Source: Enterobacteria phage P2-EC30. Taken from it: 2,187 nt of DNA. Shown in pieces: positions 1 through 2,187 of the stretch (the first letter of the stretch is position 1; the number at the start of each line of letters is the position of its first letter). Under the pieces are notes generated by a model that was given only the letters and a program-made list of their open reading frames with translations, had not been told where the DNA came from and ran no database searches. Position numbers and translations under genes: made by a program. The stretch lies in the sequence record AJ512676.1; one strand, given 5' to 3'.

Positions 1-30
1 AATCCTGAATGGCCGGAAATGCCGCAATAA
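1..30 (+). CDS. 3' end (partial) of a tail fibre assembly protein gene, P2 gpG-like; start lies upstream of the window
   Basis: Frame 1 reads aat cct gaa tgg ccg gaa atg ccg caa TAA, giving N-P-E-W-P-E-M-P-Q-stop. Tail fibre assembly proteins of lambdoid and P2-like phages end with a similar EWPxxP motif (recalled from memory, not searched). GC-normal codons (ccg, gaa) contrast with the AT-rich cargo downstream. Position immediately upstream of a tail sheath gene fits P2 synteny (H-G-[variable]-FI). Confidence 0.5.
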   Translation, partial: NPEWPEMPQ

Positions 31-92
31 GTTGTATGAGCTCTGGTGGGAGCTTACATATCTATGGCACAGAGTAAAGCCTAATTTGACAG

Positions 93-120
93 TCCGCTCT
101 GTGCCAGAGGCGGACGTTTT
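93..120 (+). terminator. Candidate weak rho-independent terminator or hairpin downstream of the tail fibre assembly gene
   Basis: TCCGCTCTG (93-101) can pair with CAGAGGCGGA (105-114) with one bulge and a 3-nt loop, followed by ACGTTTT (114-120). An alternative 9-bp stem GGCACAGAG (66-74) / CTCTGTGCC (97-105) with a 22-nt loop overlaps it. The T-tract is short, so this is weak. Confidence 0.3.
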
Positions 121-171
121 GGGTATATTAACCTTACACTTCATGGATACTATTCAACATCTCTTTTAAAT

Positions 172-226
172 TATTGTAAAATCCGACGCATTCATTGATT
201 TACGGAAACTTGGCGTATTGTAAAAT
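172..226. repeat. Two exact copies of the 11-mer TATTGTAAAAT (172-182 and 216-226), 44 bp apart start to start, in the AT-rich region upstream of the cargo gene
   Basis: Direct reading of the sequence; both copies are identical on the + strand. Each contains a -10-like TAAAAT hexamer. Function unknown: could be tandem promoter elements or regulator-binding sites. Confidence 0.6.
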
Positions 227-312
227 TGAACATCAAGATTTACACTATGAAGGTTAGGATAGTTTGTTAAAAGCATAATGCATGAGGCCTGAATCAGTTT
301 ATTAAAGAAGTT

Positions 313-343
313 TTGTATGAATTAAGTGGGCTAAAAATATAAT
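313..343 (+). promoter_or_regulatory. Candidate sigma70-type promoter for the cargo gene: -35 TTGTAT (313-318), -10 TATAAT (338-343)
   Basis: Perfect consensus -10 hexamer TATAAT at 338-343. The -35-like TTGTAT at 313-318 has a 19-bp spacer, longer than optimal. It lies about 70 bp upstream of the preferred start codon at 412. Sequence-only prediction in AT-rich DNA, where such matches arise easily. Confidence 0.35.
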
Positions 344-411
344 TTTGAAGTATTTATGACTACATGATTCATATTCAATTATTTGAGTTAAATATTTTTC
401 ATGGAGAAATT

Positions 412-1779
412 ATGGACGTTAGAATATTCTCATTAGAATCTCAGAAGAGTAAAATTTATGATAGAAGAACTAGAAAATATTTTGAAGAGGTTTATAAGAG
501 CTATGCTAATGGTTGTTACCGTTCTGCTACCGTGATGCTATGGTCAGTAGTTGTATGTGATATTATTTTTAAGCTCCAAGAACTGCGAGATGTTCATAAC
601 GATGCTGTTGCGGAAAAGATATTATTAGAAATTGAAGCACTACAAAACGATGATCCTTACTCTCCTAAATGGGAAAAAGAGCTTATTAAAAGAGTTTTTG
701 AAAGAACTCAATTATTAGACACTGCTTCAAACCATAAAGTTTTACTTATTCAAAAACACAGGCATTTATCTGCCCATCCAGTAATAAGTGACGAAGATAC
801 GTTATTCGAGCCAACACAGGAAATGATTAGAAGTGACATTAGGAATAGTATAGAAGTAATATTAAGCAAGCCGCCATTTATGTCTCAAAAAATACTTTCC
901 ACATTTGTTGCAGATCTAGAAAAGGTAAAGGACCTATTCCCTTCCGATAACGCGCTAAAAAAATACTTAGATGTTAAATATTTCAAATCTTTAAACAAGG
1001 AAGTATTAGTTAAGATATTCAAGGGGTTGTGGAAGTTTTCGTTTAGATCTGAAGAAGCTAAGCCATTAGAAAATAGAGAGATAAATATCAGAGCTATGAA
1101 ACTGATATTTGAAAAAGACAGGCAAGCCATGGTGGACTCGGTTAAAGCAGAAACTGCTTATTACTCCAATATTTCCAATAACCATGATGCAATTAAGGCA
1201 CTAATTGAGTTCATTTCCATGGAGAAAGAAATATATAACGCCTTGGATGATTCAGTAAAAGAACTCATAAAGCCTATTATAAAAGATAACATATCTTATT
1301 TTGGAATAGCCTTTTTTATATCTGAATCGCCGGAGGAACACATTAATCGCGTAACAAAAAGAATATCTGAAAAATATTACAAAAAATACGGGGATAATGG
1401 GAATTTTCTCAACCAGCAACATTTGGCAATTTTTAAAAATGTTTGCAGCGAATTAGGTTTGGAATCAGAGTATCGCGATTTTGGAATTGCTTGTTTTATA
1501 AACAGCGCTGATTTCGAACGAGCCGATATATATTTTGATAGATTTATTGACAAAGACTTGGCTAATTACTCAAGCGAGCAAATGTTAACCCTGCTTGAAG
1601 GAGCAAACAAAAACAATCAATGTTATTGGCGAAATCGCTCTAGAAACGGTAACGATTCAATAAGAATATTAAAAGCAGCAAAAAATAAACTTCCCGATGG
1701 TTTTGATTTTTCTAAGTATGATAATCTTCCTGTAGATAAGATAGATCATGTTTTAGAAGAGGATGTTGGAGAAAGATAA
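412..1779 (+). CDS. Hypothetical protein, about 455 aa; possible HEPN-family (R-x4-H) RNase-like N-terminal domain with a large uncharacterised C-terminal region; candidate phage-borne defence or abortive-infection cargo gene
   Basis: Uninterrupted ORF in the supplied track (364-1779). I prefer the in-frame ATG at 412 because GGAG at 403-406 sits 5 nt upstream, whereas the ATG at 364 has no Shine-Dalgarno at a usable distance. Tandem stops TAA TAG at 1777-1782. AT-rich codon usage throughout, unlike the flanking genes. RHLSAH (nt 760-777) fits the HEPN R-x4-6-H motif and sits about 120 residues from the N-terminus, where HEPN domains usually place it. No Walker A, no obvious transmembrane segment and no signal peptide seen. 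The domain assignment rests on motif and position only, with no profile search. Confidence 0.85.
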
Positions 1780-1815
1780 TAGTTAAAGTTAACTAACAAA
1801 ATATGATTCAAATTC

Positions 1816-1847
1816 AATCTAGGTATCATTAGCCAGATACCTAGATT
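1816..1847 (+). terminator. Perfect 12-bp inverted repeat AATCTAGGTATC-N8-GATACCTAGATT; candidate terminator for the cargo gene or a protein-binding palindrome
   Basis: Arms at 1816-1827 and 1836-1847 are exact reverse complements, with an 8-nt loop ATTAGCCA. Begins 37 nt after the cargo stop codon. Followed by the T-rich but interrupted stretch TAAACTTTAAATTTCTGTTTCTATT, so terminator function is plausible but not classic. Confidence 0.4.
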
Positions 1848-1975
1848 TAAACTTTAAATTTCTGTTTCTATTATATGTAGGCGTAACGAATAATCATCCT
1901 TAAGAAATACCTTCTAGTCTCAGAACATAATAAGACCGAGACTTCGCTTCTCGCTCAAAGCAGACTGTCAGATTT

Positions 1976-1993
1976 GATAGCGTTTCGGCTATC
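1976..1993. repeat. Palindrome GATAGC-N6-GCTATC with partially symmetric flanks (ACTGTCAG ... TCAGT)
   Basis: 6-bp perfect inverted repeat arms at 1976-1981 and 1988-1993, spacer GTTTCG. Flanking sequence is partly symmetric, about 12 of 17 positions over 1964-2005. Could be a small hairpin or a dimeric regulator site; function unknown. Confidence 0.45.
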
Positions 1994-2033
1994 TAAATAG
2001 TCAGTCGGAAAATGAGTGAGTACAAATCAGGAC

Positions 2034-2061
2034 AGGCGGGCAGATTGCCCGCCTTTTCTTT
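2034..2061 (+). terminator. Rho-independent terminator (GC-rich stem-loop plus T-tract)
   Basis: GGCGGGC (2035-2041) pairs perfectly with GCCCGCC (2047-2053) around the 5-nt loop AGATT, followed directly by TTTTCTTT (2054-2061). Oriented for + strand transcription; on the - strand the stem is followed by TGTCC, not a U-tract. Confidence 0.7.
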
Positions 2062-2157
2062 ATCTGTTGTTTCATCCACTGACCAGCCAGGTCAAATAGC
2101 GTCTCATGTACTACCCAACGGAAAATAGTTGCACCCATTAACCACGGAGTTAAACGG

Positions 2158-2187
2158 ATGAGCGACTATCATCACGGCGTGCAGGTG
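2158..2187 (+). CDS. FI: 5' end (partial) of the phage tail sheath protein gene, P2 FI-like; continues beyond the window
   Basis: ATG at 2158 preceded by GGAG (2146-2149) at 8-nt spacing. Encoded N-terminus MSDYHHGVQV matches my recollection of the P2 gpFI tail sheath N-terminus (not verified by search). GC-normal codon usage. Only 10 codons are visible. Confidence 0.6.
   Translation, partial: MSDYHHGVQV

Follow-up and report, generated by a model that had tools for sequence, protein, structure and literature searches.

An AT-rich defence cassette between inverted-repeat boundary elements in the Z/fun slot of a P2-like Escherichia coli prophage

In 2004, Nilsson, Karlsson and Haggard-Ljungquist reportedly described Z/fun of P2 as a lysogenic-conversion slot between the genes G and FI, characterized the P2 lysogenic-conversion genes as AT-rich, and proposed site-specific recombination at the repeats that flank the cargo. 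The term moron, as used by Hendrix and colleagues, is said to denote an extra gene of deviant composition, with its own promoter and terminator, located between genes that are adjacent in relatives. The slot was reported as a second defence-enriched locus of P2, home of fun and of three newly described systems, by Vassallo et al. (2022), who also named PD-T7-3. The same protein is known as DARNA, a HEPN RNase that forms a dodecamer, cleaves the tRNA anticodon loop when triggered by ssDNA that a phage SSB presents, and halts growth once activated, i.e., abortive infection (Puteikiene et al., bioRxiv 10.64898/2026.02.22.705581), and as 'Dandelion' in the PDB (entries 9wxf, 9wwz and 9wx2).

The stretch of DNA analysed here (the window; 2,187 nt) comes from a P2-like E. 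coli prophage, of which it covers the Z/fun moron slot between G and FI (Table 1). A reference locus that is 99.9% identical to the window (L002) lies within a complete P2-like prophage according to the RefSeq annotation. The 3′ end of G and the start of FI are kept in all P2-like loci compared, and the G and FI flanks are 91–97% identical among P2-like phages, with the exception of a single, more diverged left flank at 83%. Position, conserved flanks and inverted repeats (as in GenBank AJ512685) are all the same as in the P2 Z/fun locus, and the cargo is likewise AT-rich and within the range of one or two genes; the differences are that DARNA is found here in place of fun, and that the right repeat of the window is slightly degenerate. 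Like morons of the Hendrix type, the locus deviates in composition, sits between conserved late genes, and has its own predicted promoter and a strong terminator hairpin, but it has defined repeat boundaries, which are dispensable for classic morons. No empty slot was seen among the P2-like genomes sampled.

Table 1 Features of the window
Feature	Position	Strand	Basis and remarks
3′ end of tail-fibre assembly gene G	1–30	+	Stop TAA at 28–30; CDS 19503–20030 of L002 ends at window position 30
Inverted-repeat pair I2 bracketing the cargo	83–112 and 1945–1974	.	30 nt, 80% complementary, 1,832 nt apart
IR-L, left boundary element	92–115	.	GTCCGCTCTGTGCCAGAGGCGGAC then GTTTT; fold, same site in relatives, end of homology at 113–121
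AT-rich variable cassette	122–1944	+	Segmentation, breakpoints against nine P2-like loci, GC by segment
Promoter and leader region of the cargo gene	122–411	+	About 28% GC; putative promoter position
PD-T7-3/DARNA/'Dandelion' gene	412–1779	+	455 aa; N-terminal HEPN RNase and helical ssDNA-binding C-terminal domain
Probable intrinsic terminator of the cargo gene	1816–1870	+	12-bp stem at 1816–1847, then T-rich tail
IR-R, right boundary element	1942–1965	.	CTTCGCTTCTCGCTCAAAGCAGAC; fuzzy match with two mismatches
P2 right-flank intrinsic terminator	2034–2054	+	GGCGGGCAGATTGCCCGCC then TTTTCTTT; terminator scan
Candidate Ogr-dependent late promoter element of FI	2068–2085	+	Regex match, TGT-N12-ACC; low confidence
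Start of tail sheath gene FI (MSDYHHGVQV)	2158–2187	+	CDS start 22159 of L002 matches window position 2158, allowing for one indel

The terminator of the right flank is present in all P2-like loci, has a predicted fold of -20.5 kcal/mol (z = -5.44) and would shield FI from read-through out of the slot. The dyad consensus of P2 late promoters is TGT-N12-ACA, to which the candidate FI element is a relaxed match. A 38-aa ORF at 2012–2128 is not considered a gene, since it runs across the conserved terminator and promoter region.

The AT-rich block is real, an observation that is correct but ordinary. GC content is 48.8% at 1–121, 31.8% at 122–1944 and 47.7% at 1945–2187, compared with 52.8% in the prophage outside the window and 54.4% in the neighbouring host genes; the AT content of the cassette is thus about 17–22 points above that of flanks and host. 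An earlier note on this DNA, made from the sequence, had estimated about 47% GC for positions 1–60 and about 26% near the start of the gene, in agreement with the computed 46.7% and with 25–27% in the 100-bp windows 351–450 and 401–500, and the host is E. coli, not an organism of about 30% GC. Maximum-likelihood segmentation with two breakpoints places the steps at 123 (2-lnL range 111–150) and 1933 (1879–1951) and improves the fit by 19.1 lnL; a coarser grid yields 18.4 lnL, a gain reached in 0 of 300 mononucleotide shuffles (mean 5.1, maximum 14.2), which bears out the claimed step change at the cargo boundaries.

Alignment with P2-like relatives gives the same picture. In nine loci with unrelated cargo, homology to the flanks stops at 113–121 and resumes at 1945–1948, i.e., the relatives share breakpoints that flank the AT-rich block, and the left edge, previously put near 120, coincides with both the compositional and the homology breakpoint. 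The right edge had been placed near 1860, however, and this has to be revised: the position is outside the support interval, the stretch 1861–1944 is still low (33.3% GC), and the compositional edge lies at about 1935–1945. Both GC edges fall at the boundary elements IR-L and IR-R and at the divergence points of the nine P2-like phages, and the sharpness of the step is best explained by these two conserved 24-nt inverted-repeat elements, which bound the cassette. Position 1860 is close to the end of the cargo gene's own terminator, which is not the end of the cassette.

The sole gene in the window, which is also the sole ORF with any family match, encodes a protein that matches the PADLOC profile PDLC04108 (PD-T7-3) over its full length (E = 3e-168; residues 5–440 on profile positions 3–429 of 432) and shares all 455 residues (100% identity) with PDB 9wxf ('Dandelion'), a 12-chain entry. 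The sequence identifies the cargo as DARNA, the HEPN nuclease reported to cut tRNA anticodon loops. The HEPN motif R-x4-H appears as RHLSAH at residues 117–122; Arg117, His118, Leu119, Ala121, His122 and Pro123 are invariant across 18 homologues of 34–78% identity; Arg98 is present; and the numbering R98/R117/H122, the length of 455 aa and the 1368-bp ORF of ECOR30 are in agreement with those given for DARNA in the preprint. The 100% identity indicates that the protein folds like the solved structure and likewise assembles into a dodecamer. PADLOC alone matched, with no significant family for the cargo protein in Pfam, NCBIfam or PHROGs; Rfam at E up to 1 returned nothing within the window, and a literature search on the PDB name 'Dandelion' found no paper. 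Like the described PD-T7-3/DARNA/Dandelion, the system consists of one gene, its upstream region resembles that of the ECOR30 clone, and no difference is detectable at the protein level; the context alone differs, being a P2 slot here and a lambdoid one in most other E. coli genomes. The start at ATG 412, with GGAG 5 nt upstream (403–406, a Shine-Dalgarno sequence read from the DNA), is consistent with RefSeq and with the PDB construct; ATG 364, which lacks a Shine-Dalgarno sequence, was dismissed as a start.

Upstream of the gene, where region 121–411 is 27.8% GC, a consensus scan picked up two promoter-like sites, 154–182 and 199–226, both terminating in TATTGTAAAAT (motif read from the sequence). 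Downstream, the RNA hairpin has a fold of -16.3 kcal/mol (z = -5.26), equalled in 0 of 200 shuffles, and probably terminates the cargo transcript. A stretch of 1.8 kb with 68% AT is in the range generally bound by H-NS, and the earlier note had predicted both binding and silencing. Binding, or a partial damping of expression, is plausible from the AT content alone, and the cassette resembles targets of xenogeneic silencing in having an AT content far above that of the host genes. In its strong form the prediction is nevertheless not supported, since silencing is at odds with the published defence from the cargo's native promoter in K-12, where the locus departs from xenogeneic silencing in being functionally expressed; the published clone giving functional expression extends from 444 bp upstream to 371 bp downstream of the ORF. 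The nucleation motif is not enriched: the Lang-type high-affinity H-NS motif TCGATAAATT, with up to two mismatches, is matched 4 times compared with 6.5 expected. The cargo is probably at most damped, not silenced, because defence needs its expression in the lysogen. A search of the literature on H-NS and anti-phage defence found nothing on this locus and no hns-mutant data.

The composition could also be explained by a recent gain from a low-GC donor, with amelioration still to come and with H-NS binding and silencing the block in the enterobacterial host. We consider this unlikely, although the codon usage is what such a gain would give: GC3 of the cargo gene is 28.5%, 15 AGA and 21 ATA codons, both rare in E. 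coli, are found among its 456 codons, and its CAI is 0.19 compared with 0.32–0.44 for most P2 structural genes (0.28 and 0.24 for the adjoining H and G), values that are indicative only (Sharp and Li 1987 weights), with GC3 telling the same story. The codon adaptation check that had been proposed sets the cargo apart from most P2 structural genes. Across the DARNA family, gene GC follows host GC (r = 0.86; mean offset -8.8 points), so that a gene of 33% GC would fit a host of about 40%, and homologues of 77–78% identity are found in Providencia, whose GC content is about 41%.

The closest relatives, at 80–81% amino-acid identity, argue against such a donor, as their GC content is still 34% in Ewingella and Aeromonas, where the flanks have 52% and 58%, respectively; the lineage has diversified without losing its AT-richness in hosts of higher GC. 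The unrelated cargo of the same slot is as AT-rich (33–37% GC in eight of nine), as is that of the prophage's other two moron slots (33–39%), and a lambdoid prophage of E. coli holds a copy that differs by 3 mismatches and 1 gap in 1,863 bp, with 0 amino-acid differences; the high-affinity H-NS motif, as noted, is not enriched. The claim of acquisition from a low-GC donor accordingly stands in one half. The block is of foreign origin, as indicated by the unrelated genes that occupy the slot in nine relatives, the low GC3 and CAI, and the near-identical copy in another prophage family; a specific donor is not established, since other slot cargo and family members are equally AT-rich, and the low GC fingerprints no organism that could be named. 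The immediate source is most likely another E. coli prophage.

An alternative is that AT-richness is itself selected, with low GC and rare codons keeping expression of a potentially toxic nuclease in the lysogen low and damped by H-NS. Genes of the DARNA family are below the GC content of their 18-kb flanks in 63 of 65 genomes from many phyla, the close clade stays at 34% in hosts of 52–58%, the CAI is very low with plentiful AGA and ATA, and the 290-bp upstream stretch is about 28% GC; tight dosage control is plausible because DARNA stops growth when activated. We hold this explanation to be doubtful, as regulation by composition is conjecture here, mutation bias or relaxed selection fits equally well because mobile elements generally share a low-GC bias, and low GC is not needed for function, given that family members reach 66% GC. 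Low GC is better regarded as a trait of the mobile defence-gene pool, because both the relatives and the unrelated slot cargo are likewise AT-rich.

IR-L and IR-R are present at the slot edges in nine P2-like loci; both occur in three of four lambdoid loci, and only IR-R in the fourth (L089). GenBank AJ512685 carries annotated repeats flanking the cargo, with a 'left inverted repeat' at the position of IR-L. Of the two elements in the window, only IR-L folds into the canonical hairpin (10-bp stem, one bulge, 3-nt loop); IR-R is degenerate relative to its consensus GTCCGCTnnTCGCTCAAAGCRGAC, and covariation in the IR-R stem is too weak to point to selection for structure. The lambdoid (Rac-like) copies of the cassette were found in 10 E. 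coli genomes, between the same elements and with an identical protein, in a slot between DUF977/ydaW and hokD; junctions were counted in 10 genomes for the lambdoid and 2 for the P2 context, and identity of the window to the lambdoid copy stops at 1966. A second cassette, which by size and boundary elements matches the FRG-domain locus L088, is identical at 1839 of 1853 positions in P2-like and lambdoid contexts, with its switch points inside the same elements. Outside the boundary elements there is no homology between P2-like and lambdoid backbones. Horizontal exchange of the cassette is supported.

These junctions bear on the proposal that the boundary elements are merely conserved terminators and that exchange takes place by homologous recombination in the long flanking genes. 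In favour of this proposal, IR-L forms a stable hairpin with a T run behind it where the G operon ends and is probably the terminator of the late V–G operon, and the identity of the G and FI flanks given above, even with one left flank at 83%, is ample for RecA-mediated exchange. The proposal is very unlikely all the same, as two cassettes are at least 99% shared by backbones without outside homology and switch inside both elements, and as the lambdoid slot has its own diverged copies of both. IR-L probably doubles as the point where the slot recombines on its left side.

The explanation that we consider highly probable is a P2 slot holding an exchanged, self-contained AT-rich DARNA cassette, delimited by the IR elements and swapped by recombination, with low GC as a sign of pool membership. 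The cassette (about 122–1944) would be a unit in which a single gene has both a promoter region and a terminator to itself, exchanged through recombination within the two elements; the cargo would take the inner half of each element along, and the phage backbone would keep the outer half. The same pair of elements bounds the slot in other P2-like phages and the analogous lambdoid slot, and low GC would reflect membership in an AT-rich mobile defence-gene pool rather than the recent gift of one low-GC organism. The nuclease with its solved structure, the P2 hotspot and the flanking inverted repeats are already known, and the locus has little weight as a discovery, all of its central elements having been published. 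It serves as a worked example of how a GC step and two boundary elements locate defence cassettes within a few bases in P2-like and lambdoid prophages, which could become a simple search rule for new defence candidates, and it emphasizes that low GC alone is no evidence for a particular donor or for silencing.

The way of working, although not membership, recalls integron attC cassettes: promiscuous single-gene cassettes, imperfect inverted-repeat sites, and switch points inside the sites. The differences are that there is no adjoining integrase, that both sites are unlike attC in sequence and length, and that each cassette has its own promoter, with one cassette per slot and no array. No recombinase was found beside the sites in the window, and the neighbours are G and FI in P2 and DUF977 and hokD in the lambdoid slot. 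Short-homology recombination and true site-specific recombination cannot be told apart by sequence alone. Tentatively, the boundary elements may be a dedicated cassette-exchange site common to unrelated families of temperate phages (P2-like, lambdoid and at least one further island), with defence genes, for example DARNA and an FRG-domain gene, hopping by crossover in the element centre, via a recombinase or via phage single-strand annealing proteins of the RecT or Red-beta kind acting on extruded hairpins; we regard this as possible but lean against it. If true, prophage immunity genes would have a system akin to integrons, in which the modern defence systems, the lambdoid DUF977-to-hokD slot and the mechanism would be the new parts.

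The cassette was not found in the plasmid collection, in 50,697 deposited phage genomes, where the flanks alone match, or in 80 IMG/VR loci with an exact IR-L. Among these 80 loci, a sample skewed to conserved copies because it was chosen by exact pattern, G is upstream of IR-L in 26 and DUF977 in 30, and IR-R lies within 8 kb in 11 G-to-FI and 17 DUF977-to-hokD loci.

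The compositional step in the window is real and lies well outside chance. In 100-bp sliding windows, GC is 44-46% over 1-150, drops to 20-40% between about 150 and 1900, and is back at 45-48% from 1950 on. Fitting two breakpoints by maximum likelihood gives steps at 123 (2-lnL range 111-150) and 1933 (1879-1951), and the lnL gain is 19.1; with breakpoints set on a 5-bp grid it is 18.4, a value that none of 300 shuffles attains (mean 5.1, maximum 14.2). This confirms the discontinuity described in the earlier note, whose hand counts of about 47% GC for positions 1-60 and about 26% near the start of the cargo gene are correct (46.7%, and 25-27% in windows at the gene start). 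The left edge proposed there, near 120, agrees with the step at 123, whereas the right edge, near 1860, has to be moved to about 1940: positions 1861-1944 are still low at 33.3% GC, which puts the right end of the AT-rich block at about 1935-1945.

Composition, cargo gene and boundary elements of the P2-EC30 window and of the lambdoid DARNA locus L003
Feature	Position	Sequence or value	Remark
GC, left segment	1-121	48.8%	
GC, AT-rich block	122-1944	31.8%	
GC, right segment	1945-2187	47.7%	
GC, remainder of prophage		52.8%	
GC, neighbouring host genes		54.4%	
Cargo ORF	412-1779	455 aa	single substantial ORF of the window; GGAG 5 nt 5' of ATG
Promoter-like sites	154-182, 199-226		predictions
Plausible terminator of cargo gene	1816-1847	12-bp hairpin and T-rich tail	z = -5.3
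IR-L	92-115	GTCCGCTCTGTGCCAGAGGCGGAC	stable hairpin, then GTTTT
IR-R	1942-1965	consensus GTCCGCTnnTCGCTCAAAGCRGAC	window copy slightly degenerate
Outer halves, P2-like		...GACAGTCCGCTC and GCAGACTGTCAG...	
Outer halves, lambdoid		...GGTTGTCCGCTT and GCGGACTAGAAG...	
Lambdoid boundary elements of DARNA cassette	L003 8001-8024 and 9852-9875		

Two complete E. coli chromosomes are 99.9% identical to the entire window, and in E. coli ARS-C101 it lies within an intact P2-like prophage, flanked by a tail-fibre assembly gene (P2 G) and a tail sheath gene (P2 FI). The window is matched by 1626 of 5426 E. coli genomes, in most cases, among the matches listed, by its flanks only; Shedu, SIR2, DUF6615 and hypothetical proteins replace the cargo between matching flanks in E. 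coli, and deposited P2-like phages likewise give flank-only matches with other genes between. By position, shared breakpoints and bracketing repeats, the locus is the classical P2 Z/fun slot. In Vassallo et al. 2022 it figures as a second locus of P2-like phages that is enriched in defence genes, the site of fun in P2 and of three of the systems newly described there.

In BLAST alignments of the window to nine P2-like loci with unrelated cargo, left homology stopped at 113-121 and right homology restarted at 1945-1948. These comparative breakpoints fit the GC edges, the two kinds of breakpoint lying a few bases apart on the left and about 10 on the right. An inverted repeat flanks the cargo (83-112 / 1945-1974), with one 24-nt element per arm, IR-L and IR-R, and it is because these elements delimit the cargo that the GC step is sharp. 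Both are present at the slot edges in all nine P2-like loci, and 'left' and 'right inverted repeat' are annotated at their places in GenBank AJ512685 (Nilsson et al.); the window copy of IR-R does not form the canonical hairpin.

Eleven more E. coli genomes contain window positions 92-1966 at 98.5-99.7% identity without the P2 flanks. In SCZE5 and CUPF12, the cassette is located in a Rac-like lambdoid prophage, immediately 3' of a DUF977 (ydaW-like) gene, and a junction-specific query found the lambdoid DARNA junction in exactly 10 genomes. P2 and lambdoid copies differ by 3 mismatches and 1 gap in 1863 bp, with no amino-acid differences. A 13th copy (window 91-1957; L211 4001-5868, in E. coli F2_407_2_2) has two amino-acid differences and represents a third context, outside any P2-like or Rac-like prophage; its neighbours are IS2 and a gene annotated 'inovirus Gp2 family protein'. 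The DUF977-hokD site is variable too, with an FRG-domain gene, a DUF5677 gene, a hypothetical gene or DARNA as lambdoid cargo. Slightly diverged IR-L and IR-R elements of their own were found in three of the four lambdoid slots examined (L003, which holds DARNA, L088 and L090), and IR-R alone was detected in the fourth, L089, at the mismatch cut-off applied. The IR-L/IR-R pair is common to the P2-like (G to FI) and lambdoid Rac-like (DUF977/ydaW to hokD) slots. As to damaged copies, the cassette match falls into two pieces in four lambdoid-context copies (E. coli matches H3, H6, H7 and H11) with an IS3-family transposase annotated beneath, so that an insertion interrupts the cassette there, and truncated copies in two other genomes begin at window 234 and 899.

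When P2 and lambdoid copies are aligned, they become identical within the IR-L loop or the 3' half of that element, and identity is lost again in the 5' half of IR-R or in its loop; the outer half of either element is specific to the phage backbone. Searching IMG/VR for exact IR-L yielded 80 readable loci, with G as the upstream gene in 26 and DUF977 in 30; within this set, IR-R lies less than 8 kb away in 11 G-to-FI and 17 DUF977-to-hokD loci. A second cassette from IMG/VR (1777 bp, about 37% GC), which resembles the FRG-domain locus L088 in size and boundary elements, is identical at 1839 of 1853 positions between a lambdoid (L102) and a P2-like (L105) locus, and here the backbones switch inside IR-L and IR-R at the same places as for DARNA.

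The cassette behaves like a moron. As in an integron cassette, its ends are sites within which exchange occurs; however, it has no adjacent recombinase, its sites are different and it forms no array, and it is not an integron cassette. The principle of exchange at inverted repeats is already published, and nothing central in the window is new; the extent to which P2-like and lambdoid prophages share modern defence cassettes, switching backbone within the elements, neatly extends Nilsson 2004 and could be followed up.

The interpretation placed on the step in the earlier note, acquisition from a low-GC donor with H-NS binding and silencing, is partly supported. Shared breakpoints, cassette copies elsewhere and deviant codon usage support a foreign origin of the AT-rich block: GC3 of the cargo gene is 28.5% compared with 56-72% in most P2 late genes (44% in H and G), and its codon adaptation index, an indicative value, is 0.19, lower than the 0.32-0.44 of most P2 structural genes (H 0.28, G 0.24). 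A specific low-GC donor, in contrast, is not established; what the composition indicates is a pool of mobile, AT-rich genes. GC is 33-37% in eight of the nine other cargos of the same slot and 33-39% in the two other moron slots of the same prophage, and homologues of the cargo gene occur in many phyla. Among the 65 genomes with enough flanking sequence (L012-L087), GC of the DARNA-family gene is below that of the 18-kb flanks in 63 (mean offset -8.8 points, Wilcoxon p = 3e-12) and tracks host GC (r = 0.86); the AT bias of the family is general, wherever the gene resides. The nearest relatives with enough flank (80-81% identity) come from Ewingella and Aeromonas and have 34% GC, against flanks of 52% and 58%, respectively; the AT-rich lineage has therefore diversified inside GC-richer hosts. 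The proximate donor of the cassette was probably another E. coli prophage.

Judged by AT content alone, H-NS binding of the block is plausible, and composition is the one feature of xenogeneically silenced DNA seen in the cassette; the Lang-type high-affinity H-NS motif is not enriched (4 matches, 6.5 expected). Silencing is at odds with a role in prophage defence, because a gene with that role has to be active in the lysogen.

No family was returned for the cargo protein by Pfam, NCBIfam or PHROGs, whereas PADLOC identifies it as PD-T7-3 (E = 3e-168, full profile covered), a system whose ECOR30 clone comprised a 1368-bp ORF together with 444 bp of upstream and 371 bp of downstream sequence (Vassallo et al. 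2022) and which was renamed DARNA in a 2026 preprint (bioRxiv 10.64898/2026.02.22.705581). According to the preprint, DARNA is a dodecamer in which the N-terminal domain is a HEPN RNase with R117-x4-H122 and the C-terminal domain is helical; it cuts tRNAs in the anticodon loop and works through abortive infection. RHLSAH occupies residues 117-122 of the window protein, and R117, H118, L119, A121 and H122 are invariant in 18 homologues of 34-78% identity. On every sequence-level count the cargo gene belongs to PD-T7-3/DARNA, the biochemistry being that of the literature. [quoted passage not shown] The preprint's own entries, 9tra-9tre, are absent among the matches to the cargo protein, so the DARNA/'Dandelion' structure appears to have been solved by two groups working separately; a literature search with the name 'Dandelion' and HEPN or anti-phage terms found no publication. 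Upstream of the gene, in a region of about 28% GC, TATTGTAAAAT occurs twice (172-182 and 216-226, 44 bp apart), each copy coinciding with the predicted -10 element of one of the promoter-like sites, and the pair may represent two promoters in tandem or a site bound by a regulator.

Further sites were seen in the prophages compared. In the P2-like prophage of L002, the locus 99.9% identical to the window, the old/tin hotspot (2930-4458), with replication genes on one side and the portal gene on the other, is occupied by two hypothetical genes of 39% and 34% GC, and a minus-strand hypothetical gene of 33% GC (13955-14740) separates baseplate gene V from two small tail genes upstream (phage tail protein, virion morphogenesis protein); all three moron genes are without annotated function and are candidate defence genes. 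Farther along the Rac-like prophage of L003, a further IR-L-like sequence with 3 mismatches, GTCAGCTCTGAGCCAGTGGCGGAC (16047-16070), is situated between TolA-like genes and 5' of the lysis gene essD, and may mark an additional slot.
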